IMG/VR virus record: IMGVR_UViG_3300035684_000004
Span: 1 to 62,152 of that record
DNA length: 62,152 nt
Source of the DNA: a virus
Reading direction: 5' to 3' (one strand)
Of the stretch, positions 6,467 to 62,152 are shown one piece after another (the first letter of the stretch is position 1; each line of letters begins with the position of its first letter). Both the position numbers and the translations under genes were made by a program. The notes beneath the pieces are model-generated. The model was given only the letters and a program-made list of their open reading frames with translations. It was not told where the DNA came from and did no database searches.

Positions 6467-6873
6467 CAGTCGCCCGCGTCCATGATGAGCGTGCCGTTCG
6501 TCATGGTGGGCGCGGAGCCGATGTCGAGTGGCGCGGCGTCCGCGAGCTCGATGAAGTCGAAGACGTGCTCCCCGGTCGAGGTGGGCGCGTCGACGATGAA
6601 CACGCGCCGGACGACCTCCCCGAGGGCGTACCCGCCGGGCACGGTCGGCCAGACGACGTCGAGCAGGGTGGCCATCTGCCCCAGGCCGGTCGCGGACCCC
6701 CACGACGCGGTGCTCCTGGCGAGGCTCGCGCGGGCGTACCCGGTGTAGCCGGGCTCGACGTAGGCGTCGCCGGTCAGGGACACGTCGAGGCCGAAGTACC
6801 ACGTGCTCGGCGGGGTCAGCGCGTCGCCGCGGAACAGCCAGTTCAGCAGCAGCTCGCCGTACTCGGTCTGCAC
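6466..6873 (-). CDS. Minor tail protein (position-based)
   Basis: 135 aa. GTG 6873 with GAGGAG upstream. Downstream of the tape measure. Confidence 0.6.
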   Translation of the reverse strand: MQTEYGELLLNWLFRGDALTPPSTWYFGLDVSLTGDAYVEPGYTGYARASLARSTASWGSATGLGQMATLLDVVWPTVPGGYALGEVVRRVFIVDAPTSTGEHVFDFIELADAAPLDIGSAPTMTNGTLIMDAGD

Positions 6874-13448: not shown

Positions 13449-13464
13449 GGTCACAGGGTACGGG
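13449..13464. repeat. GGTCACAGGGTACGGG 16-mer, copy 1 (core of a ~100-bp related leader)
   Basis: Exact second copy at 25313..25328. The flanks share GGTGCCGCTC, CCGGTGCTGT and GCGCCGCCCG blocks. Confidence 0.85.
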
Positions 13465-38088: not shown

Positions 38089-38152
38089 GAGGACCTCCGC
38101 TGTCCTCCGGGTGGCTCCCGCCGGTTGGTAGGGAGCGCTTCTTGTTGTTCTC

Positions 38153-38194
38153 AGTCTAGTACCCGTACCAGTGCGTGTACAGGTGAACGGCACA
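38153..38194 (-). promoter_or_regulatory. Promoter P4: TGTGCC-N7-TGTACA(-35), 17-nt spacer, -10 TAGACT
   Basis: Minus-strand reading cCTGTGCCgttcaccTGTACAcgcactggtacgggtacTAGACT. Confidence 0.6.
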
Positions 38195-38215
38195 GGAGGC
38201 GCACGTTCTCGCAGG

Positions 38216-38687: not shown

Positions 38688-39005
38688 TCAGGCCGGGTAG
38701 AGGCAGAGCGCGTACCCGGCGTAGGGCTCCGCGAAGACGCCGATCGTGGCGAACTCGTCCAGCAGCTCCCAGCTCGCCTCGATCGCCCAGTCGTACGGTC
38801 CGCCCTCGAGCAGCACCGTGGGCGTCGGGCCGGCGCTCGGCCAGTCCCACGCGGGGTTCAGCATCGGACCCTCGGCCCGGTAGGCGGCCTGCTCGCCGGT
38901 GGGCGCCGGCCCGTCGTAGCCCATCTTCGGGCCGAGCCAGGTCGCGACCAGCGCGAGCGCCTTGTCCTTCTGGTCCTTGGTCAGCTTCTTGGTCGTGGTG
39001 CTCAT
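38688..39005 (-). CDS. Hypothetical protein (105 aa)
   Basis: ATG 39005 with CAGCGGAGG upstream. Confidence 0.65.
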   Translation of the reverse strand: MSTTTKKLTKDQKDKALALVATWLGPKMGYDGPAPTGEQAAYRAEGPMLNPAWDWPSAGPTPTVLLEGGPYDWAIEASWELLDEFATIGVFAEPYAGYALCLYPA

Positions 39006-39052
39006 GTCCGCCTCCGCTGCGGTCGTGGTGGGTGCTGCTTGATCTACTTCAA

Positions 39053-39081
39053 ACACTAGTAGACGTACTAGTGGCGTGCCA
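39053..39081 (-). promoter_or_regulatory. Promoter P6: -35 TGGCAC, 17-nt spacer, -10 TAGTGT
   Basis: Minus-strand reading cTGGCACgccactagtacgtctacTAGTGT. Confidence 0.5.
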
Positions 39082-39210
39082 GGGGAACGGGTGGGGTGAA
39101 CGGGTGATGTTTCCGCAGGTAGAACGGCCTGAGACGCACGGAGGGCGCCCCGCCCGCCGCCCCTGGTGGGGAGGAGGGAGGAGCGCCCTGCGCGCTGTGA
39201 TCGGCTGGTG

Positions 39211-47300: not shown

Positions 47301-47342
47301 CGGGCTGCCCTCCGCTGGCAGTCGGGTGATTCAGTGGTACTG

Positions 47343-47385
47343 ATACTAGTACACGGTCTGGGGTCGTGTACAGGCGAACGGCACA
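47343..47385 (-). promoter_or_regulatory. Promoter P2: TGTGCC-N7-TGTACA(-35), 18-nt spacer, -10 TAGTAT, then GTACCACTGAA
   Basis: Minus-strand reading cCTGTGCCgttcgccTGTACAcgaccccagaccgtgtacTAGTATcaGTACCACTGAAtc. Confidence 0.65.
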
Positions 47386-47389
47386 GGTG

Positions 47390-48292
47390 TCAGGCGCCGC
47401 CCAGGTAGTCCGCACACGCCAGCTCGACCGCCCGCCACAGCGGCATCTCCCGGTCGCCGGCGTCCCGCCGGACCTTCTTCGCCGCCCGGACGATGACCGC
47501 AGCGGCGTCCGGCGGCACCGCCCGCGTCCCGAGCATGGACTCCACCGGCACGTGCTCCTTCCGGCGCGGCTCGCCGTCGCCGTCGAGCCAGCCGGCCTGC
47601 GTCGCTTCGAGGTTCGCCTCGAACACGTCGAGGATCAGGCCCAGCGCCGTGGCGACGTTCCCGACCTTCCACGCGGCGTGCGCCGTCTCGAGCGCGTCCA
47701 GCGTCGGGTCGTACTGCGCGAGCGCGGCGACCCACCGGCCCGCGACCGTGCCGGCGAGCTTCCGGGCGTCGTCCAAGGCCTGCTGCGCCCGCTCGAGCTC
47801 GGCGGGCAGGAACACCAGCGTCACCGTCTGGAAGTCCAGGTTCGCCTCGGACAGGCCCTGCACGTCAACCTTCGTCAGCAGGTCGAGGGTCTTGTCGTCG
47901 AGGCCCGCGTACGCCCGCCAGTCGACGTCGTCGAGCTGCTCGTACAGCGCCTTGAGCGTGGCCGGGTCGTCCTCGCCCTCGATCGCGTTGTGCGACAGCT
48001 GCCGGGCGATGATCTGCTGCTTGGACTGCTCATCGCGGACGACGAGCACGTGGTCCTCATGGTCGCGGCCGAGCGCCGTCATCGCGGCCTCGATCCGGTG
48101 GTGCCCGGACACGATGTCCCCGGGCACGGCCGGGTCAGGCTCGTAGATCAGGGGGAGGGACGTGAGCCGGCCGTCGGCGCGGATGTTCGCGACCAGCCGG
48201 TCGAACGTCTCCTTCCGCATAAACCGCGCGTTGACCGCCTGCGGGTTGAAGTCGGCGAGGCGCCGCTTCTGGATCTCGACGTTCAGGGTCAT
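47390..48292 (-). CDS. ParB-like nuclease (ParBc/Srx) domain protein
   Basis: 300 aa from ATG 48292 (ATGA overlap). N-terminal LPLIYEPDPAVPGDIVSGHHRIEAA motif. Confidence 0.72.
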   Translation of the reverse strand: MTLNVEIQKRRLADFNPQAVNARFMRKETFDRLVANIRADGRLTSLPLIYEPDPAVPGDIVSGHHRIEAAMTALGRDHEDHVLVVRDEQSKQQIIARQLSHNAIEGEDDPATLKALYEQLDDVDWRAYAGLDDKTLDLLTKVDVQGLSEANLDFQTVTLVFLPAELERAQQALDDARKLAGTVAGRWVAALAQYDPTLDALETAHAAWKVGNVATALGLILDVFEANLEATQAGWLDGDGEPRRKEHVPVESMLGTRAVPPDAAAVIVRAAKKVRRDAGDREMPLWRAVELACADYLGGA

Positions 48293-49680
48293 GCCGGCCA
48301 CCTCTGGTCGCTCGAGTGCTTGTCCATCCACGTGGCGAGCGCGCCGGCGAGGTCCCACGCCCCCAGCGGGCCCTCGTAGTTCAGCATGTAGCGGTGCACG
48401 CCGTCCTTGGCCGTGCCGCCCTCGCCGCCGTCCTCCCGCTTCGCGAGCTTCATGCCGGGGATCCCGCGGCCGTACTTCGCGGACTGCGGGTTGTCGCTGA
48501 ACGCGGTCGTCAGCACGGTCCGGAGCCGGCGGGACAGGGGCCGCTGCAGGAGATGCCGGGCCTCGTCGCTCATGGCGGCCATCACGATCAGCTTCGAGAG
48601 GCGGCGGTACTGCGTCCACGCGACGGGGAAGTCGGACAGCAGGTACGCCTGCGACGGCTCGTACTTCGGGCCGCTGTACGCGAACGCGCCGATCAGCTTC
48701 CCGCCCGCGGAGACGCCGACGGCGAGCAGCGGGCTGCCCGGCAGGATGCTCTTGTTCATGAACTGCGAGCGGAGCGCGGAGAACTCCGGGCCGGTGAGCA
48801 CGTGCAGGCGCAGCGGGCCCTCGAGGTCCTCCCACGGGCCGAGCTTCGGCATCAGCACCGGCGCGGTCTGCTGCCGGGGCTGCACGATCCGGGTGGTCAT
48901 GCCCGCGCTGTACACGTAGATCGAGACGCCCCGGTTCGTCGTCTGCACCACACCCCGGAGGTGCTCGCGCAGCTCCGGGCGCTCAACGTGCAGGCCGAGG
49001 ATCCACGCGGGCCGCTCGACGACCAGGCGGACGAGCTCGTCCTTGCCGTGCTCGTCGAGCGGCGGGTACGTCGGCGCCGGCCAGTCGAAGAACGTGTCGA
49101 TGCCCGCGAACTGCTGCTCGTAGTCGCCGCGGGCCTTCCCGTCGCTGGTGCGCTCGCCGCCGTAGAACGGCGGGAACATCACGACCGGCGCGGCTGGTGG
49201 GGCGACGTCGGCGACGAACTCGCGAACGTCCATCGGGGAGAACGACGCGAGCTGCAGGGTGAGGCCCTCGAGCTTCGCGCGGGTCTTCCCGTGCATGGTG
49301 GGCCACTGCTCGCGGGTCGCGGCGAGCATCCGCTCGTAGTAGCGGCCGGTCTTGCCGATCAGGCCGAGGAACCGGGTGCCGAGCATCAGGGTCGCCATCG
49401 TCCCGGCGCGGCCGTCGAGGTACGGCGCGAGCCAGTCGAGCCGCTCGGCGTGCTCTGGCTTGAGCGTGAACGGGAGCTCGGCGCCGGTGAGGTACCAGCC
49501 GAGCGCGCAGGAGTAGCCGGTGACGTCGTTGCTGTGGAGCCGACACCCGCGGTCGGCGAGCACCCGTTCCAGGGTCATGTTGCCCGAGCACCCGACGTAC
49601 ACGTCGTCGTCGGGGCCCCACTCCGCGGACCGCTCCCAGACCAGCGAGCGCATGTCGCCGGGTATCGAACCGTGGAACAC
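48289..49680 (-). CDS. D12-class adenine-methyltransferase-like protein with degenerate motif IV (FPPF) and an unknown C-terminal domain
   Basis: 463 aa from GTG 49680 (CAGCGGAGGAG 7 nt upstream). YVGCSGNMT resembles motif I. VVMFPPFYGG sits where DPPY is expected. Confidence 0.5.
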   Translation of the reverse strand: MFHGSIPGDMRSLVWERSAEWGPDDDVYVGCSGNMTLERVLADRGCRLHSNDVTGYSCALGWYLTGAELPFTLKPEHAERLDWLAPYLDGRAGTMATLMLGTRFLGLIGKTGRYYERMLAATREQWPTMHGKTRAKLEGLTLQLASFSPMDVREFVADVAPPAAPVVMFPPFYGGERTSDGKARGDYEQQFAGIDTFFDWPAPTYPPLDEHGKDELVRLVVERPAWILGLHVERPELREHLRGVVQTTNRGVSIYVYSAGMTTRIVQPRQQTAPVLMPKLGPWEDLEGPLRLHVLTGPEFSALRSQFMNKSILPGSPLLAVGVSAGGKLIGAFAYSGPKYEPSQAYLLSDFPVAWTQYRRLSKLIVMAAMSDEARHLLQRPLSRRLRTVLTTAFSDNPQSAKYGRGIPGMKLAKREDGGEGGTAKDGVHRYMLNYEGPLGAWDLAGALATWMDKHSSDQRWPA

Positions 49681-49795
49681 GGGGGCCTCCTCCGCTGAGA
49701 CGGCGTCGCCCCCGGGGGCAGTCGGCCAGGAACCTTGCGGAGGAACCGACATGACCACACCCGGGGGCGACAGGGGCCGGTCCCGGGGGACCGAG

Positions 49796-49867
49796 AGCGG
49801 GAGGCAGGGATCGAACCTGCCCCTCCCCCCTGGAAGGGGGGCGCGCCACCTTCGGCGCTTCTCCCGC
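49796..49867 (-). tRNA. tRNA-Gly (anticodon UCC)
   Basis: Hand-folded cloverleaf: GCGGGAG AA GCGC CGAAGGTG GCGC G CCCCC CTTCCAG GGGGG AGGG GCAGG TTCGATC CCTGC CTCCCGC T. All stems are Watson-Crick, U33 and A37 are present, and no CCA is encoded. Confidence 0.9.
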
Positions 49868-50082: not shown

Positions 50083-50390
50083 CGCGTTGCTCCCGTCGGT
50101 GCGTCGGCCACGGTCGCGAGGTACTTCCGGGCGGCGTCCATCGCCCGGGCGTGCTCGTCGGCGCTGCTCTCCCGGAGCCTGAGCTGGCGGTGGGCGTCCT
50201 CGTCGTCGTGGTCGCCGTCGGCGTGACCCACCAGGAACGCGGCCGCCTCCTCCGTGTGCCCGCCGAGGTGCAGCACGTCCGCGAGCGCGTCGGCCTCGGT
50301 GCAGGTCATCGCGGTGCCGATCGCGGTGGCGGTCCAGGAGTCGCCCACGACGTCCGCGAGGTACGCGACGGCGCTGGTCAGGTCGCTCAC
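50079..50390 (-). CDS. Hypothetical acidic/His-rich protein (103 aa)
   Basis: GTG 50390 overlaps the ParB stop (GTGA). Confidence 0.6.
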   Translation of the reverse strand: MSDLTSAVAYLADVVGDSWTATAIGTAMTCTEADALADVLHLGGHTEEAAAFLVGHADGDHDDEDAHRQLRLRESSADEHARAMDAARKYLATVADAPTGATR

Positions 50391-52072
50391 GGCTTGGCCA
50401 GCTTCGCGGCGCGCTTCTCGACGTCGGACAGCTGGTAGCCCATGCGCTCGCTCAAGAACCGCAGGTACCGGGCGGTGTGGTCCGGCTTCCCGCGCCAGTC
50501 GTTCCGGTCGGTGGCCTGTTCGTACGCCGCGAGCACGAGCGTGAGAACCTCGACCAGGCCCGCCGGCTCGGTCTTCTTCCCGGCGGCCGTGACCCGCTTG
50601 AGCAGCTCGTCGCGGGCGTAGGTGACCTTCTTGACGCCGAGCAGGGTCAGGCCGTAGGTGTCGCCGAAGTGGTCGCGGAGCGCGAACCCGTCAGCGACCA
50701 GCGCCGCCATGAGCAGCTGGGAGGTGCCCTTGGGGACGGCCTTCATCTTCACCGCGGTCTTGAGCCACTCCCGGCGCAGCTCCTCCGCCGCCGTCCACGC
50801 CTTGTTCGACGCGATGACGTCGGCGCGCTCCGCCCGGGCCTGCTCTTTCGCGGCCGCCTCGTCGAGGGGCTGGCCGACGCCGCCCATCGTGGCGGCTGAC
50901 GCGCCGCCGCGGATCGTGTGCAGGTCGGGCTGCGTGCAGACGTACGCTCCGCCGGCGTACTTCACCCACTCGGACTGGCGGGGCTTCTCGGCGAGCTCGT
51001 CGCCCGGCAGGGCGACGTCCTCCACCGGACGCGGCGTCACGACGTCCTGGTCGATCTCGTAGTCGCCGTCCTCGTCGTCGTCGAGCGCGTCGTCGCCGGC
51101 CTCGAAGTCCACCTCGTCGTTGACCATCGCGAGCACGACCCGGTGGCCGGCCCCGTGCACGAGCTCGCGGGTGTCCAGCCACACGTCGCCGTTGAAGACG
51201 TCGACCTGCACGCCGTGACCGGGGCAGTCGGCGTGCTCCGCGCCGGTCATCGTCTTGTACGGGTCGTCGGGCTCCGACACGGCGAACGACCGGAGCGCCA
51301 CGCACGGCTCGTCGTCCGGGACGACGCGCAGCCCCAGCTCGAGCGCCTTCTCCAGACCCGCCTTGACCAGCCGGTCCTCGACCTCCTTGTTGCGGACCTC
51401 CTGGATCCGCTGCCGCAGCATCCACGAGCCGCCCTGCGCGAGCTCGATCAGCTCTGCCTGCTCAGGCTTGCCGTCGAACTCGGCCAGGGCGGCCGCGACG
51501 TCGAGGTACTGGCCCGGGTTCGGCTGCTCCATCAGGAACGCCTTCGCCGTCTGCGACCGGGCCACCGTGAGCCGCTGCGCGACCGTGTCCGGCCGCGTCT
51601 TCGTGGCGGCCGCGATCTCGTCCGCCGACATGCCGAACAGCGACAGCTGCTCGACGGCGTTCAGGCGGTCCAACTCGGTTAGCCCGGCGCGGGCGTCGTT
51701 CTCCGCGATCTGCGTGAGCAACCGCTCGATCTGCGCGGGGTCGTTGTGCTGCTCGTCGCCCGCGATGAGCACGGGCACGCGGTCCAGACCGGCCTCGATG
51801 GCGCCGACGGTGCGGCGGTGCCCGAACTTGACCCGCAGCTGGTCGTAGCTCTTTCCCTTGTCAGGAACGACGACCATGCCCGTTCGGACGGCGACGATGG
51901 GCTGCAGGACGCCGTGGAGCCGCAGGGACTCGACGAACTCGGCGTCGGCGGCGGTGGTCATGCGGACGTTGCGGTCGAGCAGCAGGGACCGCGGGTCGCG
52001 GTACACGAGCTCGAGGTCGTACGTCGGGGTCCCGGCCGGTGTCGTGGCCGGTGCATCGGTGGTGCTGGTCAA
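50387..52072 (-). CDS. ParB/Spo0J-family protein (N-terminal ParB domain + HTH, long C-terminal extension)
   Basis: 561 aa. LRVKFGHRRTVGAIEAGLDRVPVLI is followed by an HTH-like SADEIAAATKTRPDTVAQRL. TTG start at 52072, with GGAGGAG 6 nt upstream. Confidence 0.72.
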   Translation of the reverse strand: MTSTTDAPATTPAGTPTYDLELVYRDPRSLLLDRNVRMTTAADAEFVESLRLHGVLQPIVAVRTGMVVVPDKGKSYDQLRVKFGHRRTVGAIEAGLDRVPVLIAGDEQHNDPAQIERLLTQIAENDARAGLTELDRLNAVEQLSLFGMSADEIAAATKTRPDTVAQRLTVARSQTAKAFLMEQPNPGQYLDVAAALAEFDGKPEQAELIELAQGGSWMLRQRIQEVRNKEVEDRLVKAGLEKALELGLRVVPDDEPCVALRSFAVSEPDDPYKTMTGAEHADCPGHGVQVDVFNGDVWLDTRELVHGAGHRVVLAMVNDEVDFEAGDDALDDDEDGDYEIDQDVVTPRPVEDVALPGDELAEKPRQSEWVKYAGGAYVCTQPDLHTIRGGASAATMGGVGQPLDEAAAKEQARAERADVIASNKAWTAAEELRREWLKTAVKMKAVPKGTSQLLMAALVADGFALRDHFGDTYGLTLLGVKKVTYARDELLKRVTAAGKKTEPAGLVEVLTLVLAAYEQATDRNDWRGKPDHTARYLRFLSERMGYQLSDVEKRAAKLAKP

Positions 52073-54731: not shown

Positions 54732-55123
54732 GACTGACGCGCCTCGTGCAGCGCCGACGCGTCGGCCTGCGGGTCGTTGGCGAGGACGTCGCGCATCCTC
54801 TGCAGGTCCTCGCGGGTGTTCGCGCACCAGAACAGCTCGAACGCCGACTTCGAGTCGAGCCCCAGCAGGTCCTCGGCGACACTGGCCACCTCGTCGGTGA
54901 TGGCGCCGTCCGGGGACGTCACGAACACCTCGATGGCGTCGTCGCTGGCCCATTGGTACCCGGCCGCCAGCGCGACGTGGCCCGCGAGGCAGGCGGCGGT
55001 GCCGCAGTGCCAGGAGGCCTGCCGCCAGGTGTCCGGGTTGGCGTCGATCCGGGCGAGCGCCTTGTCGAGCAGCTCGATGTTCACGGCCGTGGCCGTGTCG
55101 GTCGTGGGTGTCGGGTCGGTCAT
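54725..55123 (-). CDS. Hypothetical protein (132 aa)
   Basis: ATG 55123 with CAGCGGAGG upstream. Confidence 0.65.
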   Translation of the reverse strand: MTDPTPTTDTATAVNIELLDKALARIDANPDTWRQASWHCGTAACLAGHVALAAGYQWASDDAIEVFVTSPDGAITDEVASVAEDLLGLDSKSAFELFWCANTREDLQRMRDVLANDPQADASALHEARQSW

Positions 55124-55160
55124 GCTCGCCTCCGCTGCGAGTAGTGGTTCAGTGGTACTC

Positions 55161-55202
55161 ATACTAGTGGGTGGTGTGGGTGCTGTACAGGCCAGCGGCA
55201 CA
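55161..55202 (-). promoter_or_regulatory. Promoter P3: TGTGCC-N7-TGTACA(-35), 17-nt spacer, -10 TAGTAT, then GTACCACTGAA
   Basis: Minus-strand reading gCTGTGCCgctggccTGTACAgcacccacaccacccacTAGTATgaGTACCACTGAAcc. Confidence 0.65.
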
Positions 55203-55217
55203 GCACCCACACCCGCG

Positions 55218-55937: not shown

Positions 55938-56224
55938 CGTTCCTCCGTTGCTGCGGTGGTGGTGCTCGGGGCCGCGTGTCCAGCGCGGCCGTGGGCGAGT
56001 GCGGTGAGCGCCGAGCGGAACGCCCGGAGCCACACGTCGATGCGCGCCGTGGGGATGGCCTGCTGCTCGGCCTCCCCGCGAACCGAGACGACGTACTCCC
56101 AGGTTCCACCCTCGGGGCGTCGGGACTCCACGAACTTGAGCAGCCCGTCCTGTTCCAGGCGCTGCAGGTCCTCGACGCGTCGTGCGTGGTTGCGGGGCGA
56201 GCGCACCGGTCCTCCTGTGGGCAT
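55934..56224 (-). CDS. Small winged-helix DNA-binding protein
   Basis: 96 aa from ATG 56224 (GGAGGA upstream). VEDLQRLEQDGLLKFVESRRPEGGTWEYVVSVRG resembles a recognition helix plus wing. Confidence 0.55.
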   Translation of the reverse strand: MPTGGPVRSPRNHARRVEDLQRLEQDGLLKFVESRRPEGGTWEYVVSVRGEAEQQAIPTARIDVWLRAFRSALTALAHGRAGHAAPSTTTAATEER

Positions 56225-56261
56225 GCGTCCTCCGTTACTCCACCTCCCGGGGGCCGGGTGG

Positions 56262-56353
56262 TGTGCCAGTGAGTTGTACAGAAGGAACTCTATTGGCAGG
56301 ACCGGGAATGTACAGGAGGAATGCGGAATGGGCGTGCAAGGAAAAGCGGAATG
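56262..56353 (-). promoter_or_regulatory. Promoter P5 (-35 TGTACA 56309..56314, -10 TAGAGT 56287..56292), downstream dyad TGTGCC-N7-TGTACA (56262..56280) and four GGAATG repeats
   Basis: GGAATG copies at 56305, 56318, 56325 and 56348. This 180-bp gap looks distinctly less GC-rich than its flanks. Confidence 0.55.
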
Positions 56354-56404
56354 CACCGAACAGGTGATTCCGCTGTCCTCTGAACGCTGCTCGGGCCCGG
56401 AGCG

Positions 56405-56873: not shown

Positions 56874-57040
56874 CCACCACGGCGGGGGCCGGTAACGGGC
56901 CGCGCACGGTGTGCGATGGGGCCGGACGTGGTGCGGGACCCCGCTGATTCCTCCAGCGGGGTCCCGCTCGCGCAGTCTGCCACCGGGGCCGGGAACCGGC
57001 CAGCGTCAGCCGTGGCGGAGGGCTGACGCTGGCCGGTGCT

Positions 57041-57358
57041 CTAGCGGTCGCCCGCGGCGCGCTGCGCCCAGTCCGGGCCGGCGGCGGCCAGCTCGCGCCA
57101 CCGGTCGGTTGCGGGCCGGACGGTGCCGGGCGGCTCCCAGCCGGTGCGCTTCCCGTTCGGGGACGACACGACCCGCCCGCAGGCGTCGCACTCGGCGTCG
57201 AGGAACACGACGGAGCCGGTGACGGTCGCGGGGAGCGGGCGGAGCTTCCCGTCGCAGCCGAGGCGGCCGCAGTCGCCGGTGGGCTCCTGGCGCTGGACGG
57301 CGTCCATCCAGTCGGCGAGCAGCTGGGCGCGGGCGGGGTCGGGGGCCTGGTCGGTCAT
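57041..57358 (-). CDS. Hypothetical zinc-ribbon-like protein (105 aa)
   Basis: ATG 57358 with GGAGG upstream. CGRLGCDGK...CDACG. Confidence 0.65.
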   Translation of the reverse strand: MTDQAPDPARAQLLADWMDAVQRQEPTGDCGRLGCDGKLRPLPATVTGSVVFLDAECDACGRVVSSPNGKRTGWEPPGTVRPATDRWRELAAAGPDWAQRAAGDR

Positions 57359-58056
57359 CGGGTGCCTCCGGTGGGGGCGGTGTCTGGTCGTCCCGCTCGG
57401 GCGCGGGCTCTGGCTGTTGTCCGTGCTGGTGCTCATTGTGACGGGGTTCTGTGCTGCGCGCTAGCACGAACCCCCGTGGCGTGGCTGCACGTCGAGCAGG
57501 ACAGGGCGTCGTCCTCTTGTGGTCACCTCTCAACCCCGCCGAGGTGCTCTGCCTGCCTGTCGCCCTGGTGAGGATCGAGTTCTAGGTCAACACCCTCTGC
57601 CGGTGACCACCGGCAGCACCTCCTGCGGAGGTGAGGTGGAGTGCCTACCGGCACCGCCTACTGGACCAGCTCGCTGCGCTCGCCTGATTCACCCGGGCCC
57701 TCACCCCCCAAGGTTCTGGTCGGGGCAGCATCCACCGCGTGTCGTTCGCCCGTAGCTGGGCACAGCGATCTGCCTCCATCTGACGGAGGATCACCCGGCC
57801 GAACTGCGCCGGGGAGGGTACAGCGTGCTGCTTCGACGGTCGCGCCAGACGGTGCTCACCGATACGATGGTGAGCACGTCAGCTCGTGCGTCCCGGTGGC
57901 CCTACCACCGGTTCTGATCGCCTTGCTGGCCAGCCTCTACACCCGTTCCCGCGGGTGATGAGGTGTGCCTGCCCTGAGGCTAGGGGATGGGGCCCGCCGG
58001 ATCCAGTTGGTCCGGCGGGCCCCGCACGCACTTCGCACTCACGGCGCGTGTCGCTG
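57359..58056 (-). other. ~0.7-kb ORF-free, hairpin-dense region (candidate large structured RNA or cis-acting DNA element)
   Basis: No credible ORF in any frame. There are at least 10 short GC-rich hairpins, for example 57597..57616, 57617..57633, 57852..57877, 57893..57911 and 57989..58023. Confidence 0.5.
57989..58023 (-). terminator. 13-bp hairpin 34 nt after the stop of 58057..58326
   Basis: GGGGCCCGCCGGA-9 nt-TCCGGCGGGCCCC read directly. Confidence 0.6.
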
Positions 58057-58326
58057 CTACCCGGGCGCGTCGCCCACAGCCACGTCCACACCCTGTGCAC
58101 GACGTCGCGTCTTCCGGCACCACGCGCGCAGCCGGTGCCGGTCCTGACGCCGCTTGCCGCACCCACACCCGCACAGCCCCTCCGGCGGGCTCGGCGCCGG
58201 AGGCGGCGCCTGGTGGTACGTGCACCGCCCGTTCAGCCACCCGCGCCGCTGACACCGCTGGCCGGCGTTCGGGCCCCAGCGGATCGGCTCCCAGCAGACC
58301 AGGTCGCCCGGACGCGCGAGGTTCAC
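58057..58326 (-). CDS. Cys-rich small protein (89 aa)
   Basis: GTG 58326 lies 5 nt after the upstream stop, with GAGGGG upstream. Peptide LVCWEPIRWGPNAGQRCQRRGWLNGRCTYHQ... Confidence 0.5.
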   Translation of the reverse strand: MNLARPGDLVCWEPIRWGPNAGQRCQRRGWLNGRCTYHQAPPPAPSPPEGLCGCGCGKRRQDRHRLRAWCRKTRRRAQGVDVAVGDAPG

Positions 58327-58331
58327 GCCCC

Positions 58332-58517
58332 TCACGGCCGGACGCCCGTCGTCTCGTCGAACGGCACCGGCTTCCCGTCGACCACCGCGACGTGCTCGTC
58401 GTGCTCGCCCGACACCACGCACACCGCGTGCACCACGCCCTCGATGCCGGCCAGCAGCGTCGGGAGCGACCACCCACAGATCGGCGGCACCTCCCGCGCC
58501 GCGCCGCCCGTCCGCAC
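58332..58517 (-). CDS. Coding segment, frame A (61 aa as given in the ORF track)
   Basis: Third-position GC is high by eye, but no convincing RBS precedes it. It may be the C-terminal part of a frame-shifted gene. Confidence 0.4.
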   Translation of the reverse strand: MRTGGAAREVPPICGWSLPTLLAGIEGVVHAVCVVSGEHDEHVAVVDGKPVPFDETTGVRP

Positions 58518-58527
58518 GTCCGCGAGC

Positions 58528-58716
58528 GTCCACGAACGTCGGCTCGCCCGTCTCCCCGCTCACGTCCGGACCCACGTCGTCGTACACGTCGTCATCGTCG
58601 AGGATCGGGTCCCGCTCCTGCCCCCTGGACCGCAGGTACGCCCACAGCGCCGCGTCACGCTTCCGCGCCCGCTCCGCCAGCTCCTCGTCCTCGAACCGCT
58701 CCTGGAGCTGCGCCAT
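58528..58716 (-). CDS. Coding segment, frame B (MAQLQERFEDEELAERARKRDAALWAYL...); 3' limit approximate
   Basis: ATG 58716 with GGAG 8 nt upstream. This frame has no stop until 58057, yet its third-position GC collapses after ~58535. Confidence 0.4.
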
Positions 58717-58949
58717 CCGCGCCGCTCCGGGGGCTCGCTCACGCTTTCGTACGTGACGGCCCTCTCGGACGGCACGCCCAGCATCCGCAGCGGCGCCGAC
58801 ACCATCAGCCAGCCGCCCGCCGGCACGTGTACCGGCGGATCCAGCCGCCCGTCTTCCGTGACCCGCGCAACGTCCCCCGTGCGCTCCAACTGCGCGTCGT
58901 ACCCCGCCGCCATCGACCCCGGCAGGGGCCACCTCACTACCTCGTCCAT
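58560..58949 (-). CDS. Hypothetical protein, frame A (credible to ~58720, then an Arg/Ser-rich tail)
   Basis: ATG 58949 with CAGCGGAGG upstream. MDEVVRWPLPGSMAAGYDAQLERTGDV... Confidence 0.5.
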   Translation of the reverse strand: MDEVVRWPLPGSMAAGYDAQLERTGDVARVTEDGRLDPPVHVPAGGWLMVSAPLRMLGVPSERAVTYESVSEPPERRGWRSSRSGSRTRSWRSGRGSVTRRCGRTCGPGGRSGTRSSTMTTCTTTWVRT

Positions 58950-61362: not shown

Positions 61363-61536
61363 CGTGCTCTCCTCCGCTGAGAGTGGGTGGGGGTGGTACC
61401 AGTCCAATGGTAGTGGTACTAGTGGGCGTGGCGCCAGTGGTACGGCTAGTAGTGACCCGTGCGTGTCGCGCCCGCACCCACACGATCCGGACACCGGCCG
61501 CCGGTAGCGTCAGCCGCGCACACACCAGGAGGACTC

Positions 61537-62016: not shown

Positions 62017-62152
62017 TCAGTCCTCCTTCGGCTTCTCCTTCACCGCCGGGAGCGCGTCCGCCGCGACCCACCCGTCGGGCGCCGGGCAGTACCACGTGTT
62101 CGGGTGCGCGTGGTCCGTGCACCACCGCTCGTGCTCGACGACCGGCTCCTCC
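62017..62152 (-). CDS. 3' part of the junction-spanning 48-aa ORF (see 1..88)
   Basis: Stop codon TGA at 62019..62017. In frame with ATG 88 once the repeat is collapsed. Confidence 0.5.
   Translation of the reverse strand, partial: EEPVVEHERWCTDHAHPNTWYCPAPDGWVAADALPAVKEKPKED
62076..62152. repeat. Terminal direct repeat, right copy
   Basis: Identical to 1..77. Confidence 0.97.

Follow-up and report, generated by a model that had tools for sequence, protein, structure and literature searches.

A conserved, bipartite non-coding tract with compensatory base changes and promoter-like hexamers in a high-GC phage genome

What does a tightly packed phage genome keep in a long stretch without genes? 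The question is raised by the virus record IMGVR_UViG_3300035684_000004 of IMG/VR, a 62,152-nt stretch of DNA (the window, analyzed here at its full length) that carries a 698-nt gap at positions 57359 to 58056. An initial annotation, made from the sequence alone, suggested that the gap could hold a large structured non-coding RNA (ncRNA) recalling the GOLLD/ROOL class, or instead a cis-acting DNA element such as an origin, a packaging site, or an attachment site. Here, we show that the tract is a real, conserved, bipartite, and non-coding element, with conserved fold stability, compensatory base changes in its helices, and conserved promoter-like hexamers. The reading that we favor, with about an even chance of being right, is that, where the early and middle operons meet, the tract would give rise to a transcribed structured ncRNA or leader that has a promoter of its own, followed by a separate control region for the downstream gene, here called gene A. 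We infer transcription, strand, transcript end, and RNA role from sequence comparison.

The basic observations of the initial annotation were borne out. The gap is the longest gene-free stretch of a contig in which most neighboring genes overlap by 1 to 4 nt or lie less than 100 nt apart, and the genes on both of its flanks have homologs in relatives. Its G+C content is 68.6% compared to 72.6% for the genome and 75 to 77% for the flanks, which places it in the lowest 2% of 698-nt windows. The GC periodicity at third codon positions (GC3) is absent from about 57375 to 58050 in a frame plot, every open reading frame (ORF) within the gap scores negative on a codon model trained on the long genes of this genome, and no gene is called in the gap by independent gene callers or other pipelines. 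All seven of the hairpins listed at the outset are present at their given coordinates, and the gap contains about 10 perfect hairpins per kb with stems of 7 bp or longer, versus 2.5 per kb genome-wide (top ~3% of windows). Relative to dinucleotide shuffles, the fold of the whole gap has z scores between -3.6 and -5.0 (plus strand) and between -2.9 and -3.1 (minus strand); these values sit at the far end of the distribution of 40 control windows (mean, ~-0.4; standard deviation, ~1.2; minimum, -3.5) without going much beyond it. We considered and rejected a dispersed repeat or an element resembling a miniature inverted-repeat transposable element, as well as a copy of a promoter-leader module that recurs elsewhere in this genome; no copy lies in the gap.

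Is the tract conserved? The family that shares it comprises about seven lineages, with all relatives metagenomic: the window itself; L084/L119; L086; L090/L113-115; L123-125; L112/L121/L091; and L120. A first search with gene A returned only itself. A ParB-like protein encoded 5 kb away led to L084, a Logan contig of 10.6 kb with synteny between gene A and that protein; over its first 440 nt, which are untranslated, L084 aligns blockwise with the gap. A two-sequence profile of gene A then produced three more clusters, whose members led to further contigs. L086 is a 59.5-kb contig with synteny across the genome. The order Cys-rich gene, structured module, proximal box, gene A, and HNH endonuclease is conserved in about seven lineages, with tract lengths of 662 nt in L090, 764 nt in L113, and ~660 nt in L119. 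The initial annotation had reasoned that a protein-coding gene at this place in related phages would imply decay or assembly error; the relatives keep a non-coding tract instead, and their homologous stretches also lack GC3 periodicity.

Several other searches produced no relatives. Neither the gap nor the surrounding 12 kb matched GenBank phages by blastn, and nothing was recovered by protein-anchored scans of IMG/VR with the annealing protein, gene A, or the ParB-like protein, or by a scan of GTDB genomes with the annealing protein. An exact-pattern scan with the 22-nt core of the invariant block (described below) found no match in IMG/VR and GTDB (185,579 genomes). A degenerate probe for the distal block found nothing in IMG/VR, and one for the proximal box returned 20 matches, all of them chance hits in low-GC, unrelated contigs. 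Through the p215 protein, 80 metagenome loci were reached (up to 54% identity) but rejected as too distant, with neither the gap nor other neighboring genes in common. Microbacterium phage RubyRalph, equal in genome size and with a p215 homolog, was also rejected as it is tightly packed with another layout.

The whole tract and the features of its upstream part are as follows.
57359-58056: the whole non-coding tract, between the Cys-rich gene and gene A; no coding signal, kept in relatives.
57989-58023, either strand: perfect hairpin of 13 to 15 bp, likely a factor-independent terminator of the upstream operon (delta G, -34.7 kcal/mol), 33 nt past the stop codon of the Cys-rich gene.
57977-58005, minus strand: P1, a sigma-A-type promoter-like block directed toward gene A, with -35 TGGATC at 58005-58000, a 17-nt spacer, and -10 TAGCCT at 57982-57977.
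57597-57970, minus strand: structured module of ~374 nt, a putative ncRNA or structured leader, supported by fold z score and covariation.
57934-57963, minus strand: H1, a stem-loop that starts ~7 nt after the predicted transcription start.
57893-57911, minus strand: H2, the hairpin CCGGUGG/CCACCGG, with six stem pairs invariant in 7/7 lineages and a variable loop.
57852-57877, either strand: H3, a 9-bp hairpin whose plus-strand loop TACGAT (57863-57868) is a candidate antisense -10 element facing P1.
57773-57814, minus strand: H4 (57794-57814) and H5 (57773-57789), local hairpins seen in the sequence and the fold, in a part that aligns poorly to relatives.
57597-57633, minus strand: H8 (57617-57633) and H9 (57597-57616), two abutting perfect hairpins that close the module at its 3' end.

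The module keeps a length of ~375 to 420 nt across lineages, and its helices are retained while their sequences change. The lower stem of H1 (CCUC/GAGG) is conserved and its upper stem is rewritten yet still paired, as ACCCG/CGGGU in the window, CCCGGC/GUCGGG in L090, and CCGGG/UCCGG in L086. The stems of H3 differ among lineages, while its loop is conserved. At the 3' end, four of the eight pairs of H9 are changed on both sides relative to the L084 counterpart, which is still a perfect hairpin. In L084/L119, L112/L121, and L123 as well, the module is closed by two or three hairpins in tandem whose sequences are unrelated, and this architecture begins 337 to 367 nt after the -10 element in the window, L090, and L086, the lineages measured. 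A third helix can enclose H8 and H9 to form a three-way junction. The two hairpins have delta G values of -10.0 and -13.5 kcal/mol, respectively, and are much weaker than the hairpins at operon ends.

In every phage, the module folds more stably than its shuffles. Single-sequence z scores of the module in the sense orientation are -2.5 in the window, -4.3 in L090, -6.8 in L086, and -2.5 in the L084 part (antisense: -3.3, -3.4, -6.7, and -2.2, respectively), whereas coding controls of the same size range from -1.2 to +1.2. Against column shuffles, the consensus-fold z score is -4.45 for L090/L086 and -2.08 for window/L084, compared to -0.7 to +1.5 for coding alignments from the same phage pairs. 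In an alignment of eight sequences, 92% of helix cells are paired versus 86% in shuffles (0/500 reach it), and 13 pairs are changed on both sides versus 4.9 ± 1.6 in shuffles (0/500) and 2 to 6 in slid registers. The helices of the module show compensatory changes beyond chance, the generic mark of a structured RNA and the outcome of the comparison of related phages that the initial annotation had recommended. The suggestion of a large structured ncRNA is upheld in part: the tract holds a conserved, hairpin-rich non-coding element with compensatory changes, but the structured portion is ~375 nt rather than 700 nt, and the other ~240 nt are an unstructured control or leader region.

Does the module have a promoter of its own? 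A strict scan for Escherichia coli-type promoters found nothing. By sequence, P1 conforms to what is expected of actinobacterial sigma-A promoters, a TANNNT hexamer with A2 and T6 conserved and a -35-like element 16 to 19 nt upstream. Its -10 hexamer reads TAGCCT, TAGCAT, or TAGTCT, with T1, A2, G3, and T6 invariant and only positions 4 and 5 varying in 7/7 lineages; the spacer is fixed at 17 nt in all seven, and the -35 hexamer is TTGCTC, TGGACT, TGGCAT, TAGCTT, or TGGATC, resembling T(T/G/A)G. A profile of P1 matches once per genome, at the homologous place. TANNNT occurs in only 36 copies in the genome, 28 of them intergenic and 27 on the coding strand. Since its best copies form an obvious repeated promoter-leader module, the hexamer is a good promoter predictor here. 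The long-range AGCCTC/GAGGCT pairing raised in the initial annotation includes the -10-like hexamer of P1; with transcription from that promoter, the pairing would fall outside the RNA. Another hexamer in the gap, TACCCT at 57820, was rejected as a promoter as it is not conserved.

The 57989-58023 hairpin is a likely terminator because other long perfect hairpins of this genome also lie 3 to 80 nt after stop codons. No U-tract was found at this hairpin, and L086 does not conserve it; in Actinobacteria, terminators commonly have no U-tract. The same hairpin could also serve as the terminator of an antisense transcript.

Promoter-like sequences are also found elsewhere in the window. The promoter-leader module, ~90 nt long, occurs five times ahead of genes on the minus strand (1260-1352, 38112-38202, 39005-39100, 47305-47392, and 55123-55211), with weaker copies at 61366-61429, ~56292, and ~40180. 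Its consensus is CTGTGCCGTT..CTGTACAC..GTAC-TAGTAT-G.GTACCACTGAAyCAC..CAGCGGAGG, of which the CAGCGGAGG part is the ribosome-binding site, and its copies account for most of the lowest-GC spots of the genome. In the relative L121, the inserted genes are preceded by a comparable TAGTAT...CAGCGGAGG unit. A second group of -10-like hexamers, intergenic and on the minus strand, comprises TACCCT at 13460, 25324, 26122, and 33064 and TACCGT at 2537, 31262, and 54285; it often has the context CCG-TACCCT-GTGACC, lies mainly before structural and other late-region genes, and may represent a distinct promoter class. The intergenic region between HNH and the next gene (56207-56404) is low in GC (59 to 64%), contains TANNNT at 56312 and 56292, and is probably the promoter of the next operon.

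The downstream part of the tract differs in kind, and its features, with the genes on either side, are as follows.
57511-57540, minus strand: conserved block GGCGGGGTTGAGAGGTGACCACAAGAGGAC, 30 nt, 100% identical between the window and L084/L119.
57435-57469, minus strand: proximal box TCGTGCTAGCGnnCAGCACAGAACCCnGnCACAAT, a candidate operator or second promoter of gene A; its profile matches once per genome.
57359-57434, minus strand: A/C-rich, T-poor unstructured leader that ends in the Shine-Dalgarno sequence GGAGG (57369-57365); its length varies by lineage.
57041-57358, minus strand: gene A, 105 amino acids (aa), CxxxxC...CxxC (zinc-ribbon-like); its ATG is preceded by GGAGG.
56995-57037 (17 bp) and 56933-56967 (14 bp): two strong perfect hairpins directly after gene A, likely terminators (-37.6 and -32.5 kcal/mol).
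58057-58326, minus strand: Cys/Arg-rich protein of 89 aa on the right flank, last gene of the upstream (early) operon; GC3, 0.92.

The segment from 57596 to 57359 is unstructured (z scores of -0.7 to +1.8; for the 57359-57434 leader, -0.7 in the window and +1.1 in L090), and its sense strand contains 9% T and 23% A, a bias also present in L090 and L119. Since this segment is unstructured and T-poor on the sense strand only, a strand-specific role at the RNA level is suggested. Around the 30-nt block, the window and L084 are only ~59% identical. The block core GGTGACCACAAGA also occurs in L090, L112, and L121, where it is tandem-duplicated. The proximal box always lies 60 to 200 nt upstream of gene A in every lineage, even where genes split it from the module. 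Gene A homologs share 44 to 66% aa identity among relatives, and those of the Cys-rich ORF share 51 to 55%, at full length in L086 (89 aa; 52%; E value, 6e-22) and over ~42 aa in L112 and L123; the Cys-rich ORF has a faint match to DUF5763 and was missed by gene-calling pipelines. No U-tract was found after the gene A hairpins. Three candidates in this part were rejected: GGTNACCAC as an enriched operator (5 copies versus 2.7 expected genome-wide), the proximal hairpin at 57443-57475 as a conserved RNA stem (uncompensated mismatches in L090 and L086), and an upstream in-frame ATG at 57436 as the start of gene A (absent in L086, with indels there that are not multiples of 3).

Genes tend to be inserted between the module and the proximal box, a hot spot where same-strand genes are present in L086, L112, L120, L121, and L123. 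Because genes are inserted between them in relatives, the module with its promoter forms one unit (unit 1) and the proximal box, leader, and gene A another (unit 2); in the window, the two units are directly abutted. The inserts encode a 102-aa zinc-ribbon protein in L086 (9488-9796), its 90-aa homolog in L123 (1239-1511), an HTH_36 protein in L120 (2050-2811), a 344-aa protein in L112 (1538-2572), and a three-gene block that includes DUF5131 in L121 (416-1933).

How might these units work? In the favored reading of a structured ncRNA or leader, P1 would fire in the direction of the genes and yield a hairpin-rich RNA of ~375 nt (~57970 to 57597, minus strand) that would begin with H1, contain the conserved H2 and H3, and end at the adjacent H8 and H9. 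Unit 2, with its 30-nt block, proximal box, T-poor leader, and strong ribosome-binding site, would be the control region of gene A. The RNA could be a stable ncRNA that terminates at the tandem hairpins; alternatively, it could be a structured leader in which the tandem hairpins act as a leaky terminator or attenuator that gates or delays transcription into gene A and beyond. The promoter-like element in the H3 loop may add antisense control, and the module may thus carry face-to-face promoters. The sense strand is favored by the direction of P1, the orientation of the inserted genes on the same strand, and the depletion of T on one strand downstream.

Several observations weigh against this reading. 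The tandem hairpins are weak for terminators (-9 to -17 kcal/mol in the window, L084, and L090) and have no U-tract in most lineages, with only L090 showing a UUUCG tail. The opposite strand of the H3 loop matches TANNNT in 7/7 lineages (TAGAAT in three, TACACT in two, TAACCT, and TACGAT). Helices common to both orientations contain three G.U cells versus two A.C cells, favoring neither strand, and the antisense consensus fold is slightly better (-46 versus -34 kcal/mol); we rejected thermodynamics and wobble counts as strand discriminators, as they do not separate the strands. The test of covariation used a structure derived from the very alignment being tested, which comprises only eight related sequences. 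The alignment of the window to other lineages is limited to blocks, and a ~50-nt hairpin present just upstream of H2 in all of them is missing from the window. Recent recombination, rather than selection, could account for the ~115 nt over which L090 and L086 are nearly identical.

An alternative that we consider unlikely is that the tract functions as DNA, as an origin of replication or another replication or recombination site. Its hairpins would then be DNA structures, its GGTNACCACAAG repeats initiator sites, and its promoter-like elements a means of transcriptional activation of the origin. The equal hairpin potential of both strands fits this idea, as does a flip in the sign of the third-position GC skew exactly at the tract, despite co-oriented genes, that is conserved in L086. 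In plus-strand terms, the GC3 skew is positive at 31.9 to 38.1 kb and 47.1 to 57.4 kb and negative at 58.1 to 62.0 kb. However, the genome shows several such blocks rather than one origin/terminus pair, the polarity at the tract is terminus-like by the bacterial rule, and module-specific codon usage would explain the blocks equally well. L112 carries two perfect and one 8/9 match to the DnaA box TTGTCCACA, the actinobacterial consensus, within 85 nt (831-915) immediately upstream of the promoter-like block, but DnaA boxes are absent from 5/7 lineages; the window has three matches, each 7/9, at 58070-58102. The sequence GGT(A/G)ACCACAAG is tandem-duplicated in L090, L112, and L121, beside their lowest-GC stretch (45%), and the genome yielded neither another origin candidate nor a replication initiator. 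In the window, no iterons were found, direct repeats with at least three copies are absent and only two-copy short repeats occur, and the tract has no AT-rich unwinding stretch (minimum 40-nt GC, 57.5%), all truly low-GC spots of the genome being promoter modules. The one-strand T depletion downstream points to a role at the RNA level, and genes insert between the two units with neither unit lost.

It is similarly improbable, in our judgment, that the tract is an ordinary spacer between operons, made up of terminators of the early operon, a promoter, and a long 5' untranslated region of gene A, with hairpins that do no more than stabilize or terminate transcripts, and that it serves as a hot spot for the gain and loss of small genes without a dedicated RNA role. 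Strong hairpins flank gene A and insulate it in the manner of a self-contained cassette, the inserted genes differ among relatives, the structure of terminator hairpins is known to persist as their sequence changes, and the ~50-nt hairpin of the other lineages has been lost from the window. On the other hand, H1, H2, H3, and the sequence blocks are conserved although the flanking proteins are only 45 to 65% identical, and the fully identical 30-nt block stands on its far more divergent background. The module keeps its length and architecture even with up to three genes between it and gene A, and a structured unit of ~375 nt with its own promoter is not expected of a plain spacer.

We regard as very unlikely that the functional product is instead an antisense, plus-strand RNA of ~150 nt, which would run from TACGAT (57863-57868) across H2, H1, and P1 to the 57989-58023 hairpin and act on the sense transcript or by promoter interference. 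Besides the conserved TANNNT at the H3 loop, a -35-like TGGyCT lies 17 nt upstream of the hexamer in 5/7 lineages, though it is missing in the window and L120. The plus strand of the gap folds slightly better, the 57989-58023 hairpin gains a U.G pair on the plus strand only, and face-to-face promoters are a known design of phage switches, as in P22 ant/sar and phage 186 pR/pL. However, no terminator hairpin lies upstream of P1 in L086 and the L090 type has no room for one, the H3-loop hexamer could be conserved as an RNA loop motif, and ~250 nt of conserved structure downstream of H3, together with the tandem hairpins, would be left unexplained.

That the tract is a decayed or misassembled protein gene, or encodes unrecognized small proteins, is hardly credible: several ORFs of 30 to 105 aa are open in the gap and one on the plus strand (57641-57958) has a good ribosome-binding site, but the negative codon-model scores extend to all of them (-49 for the 105-aa ORF), GC3 periodicity is lacking here and in relatives, where the tract stays non-coding, three independent assemblies are identical, and the conserved blocks are broken by indels that are not multiples of 3. 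Of the other suggestions of the initial annotation, a packaging site is unlikely with the large terminase at ~29.3 to 31.2 kb, 26 kb from the tract, and an attachment site is unlikely with no integrase among the scanned proteins and no tRNA-like core in the tract; the 22-nt block, the one gap sequence compared with the 185,579 genomes, had no match there.

Returning to the reading of a structured RNA, we propose tentatively, and with more doubt than confidence, that unit 1 may represent a new family of phage structured RNAs (~350 to 420 nt, with its own sigma-A promoter) in a clade of uncultivated high-GC actinophages, acting as a temporal-switch regulator or as a host-directed, trans-acting RNA. 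For the former, one example would be an RNA for processive antitermination or attenuation, with which RNA polymerase would get past the strong terminators that follow gene A. By RNA sequencing (RNA-seq), the long non-coding regions of actinobacteriophages rank among the most highly expressed parts of those genomes, and none has a defined structure or family. The present locus is a compact, comparatively defined example, with a promoter-like block, ~375 nt whose structure is conserved with compensatory changes, a defined 3' end, and natural variants in which insertions part it from the next gene. If confirmed, it would add a new RNA family and possibly an early-to-middle switch mechanism in phages of high-GC bacteria; should the tract prove to be an origin, it would join the small number defined so far in such phages.

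The wider genome has a G+C content of 72.6% and nearly all of its genes on the minus strand. It is siphophage-like, and since an exact 77-nt direct repeat is present at its ends (1-77 and 62076-62152), the contig represents a complete, circularly closed genome of ~62,075 bp. Across the stretches compared, of 15 kb and 7.6 kb, identical sequence occurs in the NCBI metagenome assembly GCA_034691665.1 and in Logan SRR11829736. Its large terminase is at most 38.5% identical to that of any GenBank phage, which makes it very distant from sequenced phages. In minus-strand order, the gene blocks are as follows.
First: early/recombination block, with a single-strand annealing protein (61.4-60.4 kb) and the phrog_9210 "DnaJ-like" protein.
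Next: the non-coding tract, gene A, and the HNH endonuclease.
Then: ParB_N-like protein, DAM-like/GNAT-like protein, and tRNA-Gly.
Last: large terminase (~30 kb), portal, capsid, tape measure, endolysin, and holin.

Three further observations were made in this neighborhood. A DAM-like-phage1 and GNAT-phage-like fusion protein (48289-49680) lies near the 561-aa ParB_N-like protein (50387-52072), with a tRNA gene and two small ORFs between them; tRNA-Gly(TCC) at 49795-49867 is the only tRNA in the window and has a 12-bp hairpin ahead of it, and the pair of DAM/GNAT and ParB_N-like proteins is kept in L085 and L086 and resembles a DNA-modification module. A second uncalled stretch of 419 nt (58518-58936) has a clear coding signal on the minus strand, especially at 58520-58716 (MAQLQERFEDEELAERARKRDAALWAYL...), and shares an open frame with the Cys-rich ORF, while a called 61-aa gene between them (58332-58517) is in another frame; the stretch could be a missed small gene, an overlap, or a frameshift, and no homolog was found in L086. 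In L084, positions 6604-6655 match the Rfam guanidine-II riboswitch at 31.8 bits versus a gathering score of 32 inside the ParB-like coding region, probably a false positive.

How does the tract compare with known systems? The scan against known families that the initial annotation had proposed (Rfam 15) identified no family at the tract in the window or four relatives. At gathering thresholds, the tRNA is the sole match in the whole window, and a permissive scan of 56900-58400 (E ≤ 10) and of L084, L086, L090, and L091 (E ≤ 5) gave no plausible family at the tract. Kinship with GOLLD (RF01998) or ROOL (RF03087) is not supported, with no covariance-model match and a structured part of ~375 nt rather than 500 to 800 nt. 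Like the tract, those RNAs are large, structured, and sometimes phage-borne, but they often adjoin tRNA genes, whereas the nearest tRNA here is ~7.5 kb from the tract.

Antitermination RNAs offer a lead only. The put sites of phage HK022 span ~70 nt close to the promoter and form two adjacent stem-loops, and the Bacillus EAR is likewise a promoter-proximal antitermination RNA. The module would similarly be a cis-acting structured RNA after a promoter, in a unit that faces strong terminators, and H8 and H9 are adjacent stem-loops; unlike put, the tandem hairpins lie ~340 nt downstream of the promoter and are not conserved in sequence. The two opposed, conserved -10-like hexamers, 115 to 170 nt apart, offer another lead, to the face-to-face promoter and antisense control regions of temperate phages such as P22 ant/sar, phage 186 pR/pL, and lambda oop, but this phage yielded no repressor or integrase, the window lacks the antisense -35 element, and both promoters are predicted. 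Gene A, bracketed by strong hairpins at a site that takes different small genes, resembles established moron-type insertions, independent promoter-gene-terminator cassettes that lie between phage genes, a concept that covers inserted genes and leaves the conserved ~375-nt structured unit upstream unexplained.

Among known systems, the tract comes closest to the intergenic non-coding regions of actinobacteriophages that are highly transcribed, namely nc_1 to nc_3 of Rhodococcus phage WC1 and the right- and left-end ncRNAs of mycobacteriophages D29, Kampy, and L5 (PMC10986025). Those regions are defined by RNA-seq coverage, whereas the tract is known from its sequence, and conserved secondary structure is not reported for them in the text consulted. 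No sequence similarity of the tract to GenBank phages was found. The regions and the tract are alike in being intergenic and non-coding, in belonging to phages of high-GC actinobacteria, in lying at the borders of gene modules, and in standing outside any curated family.

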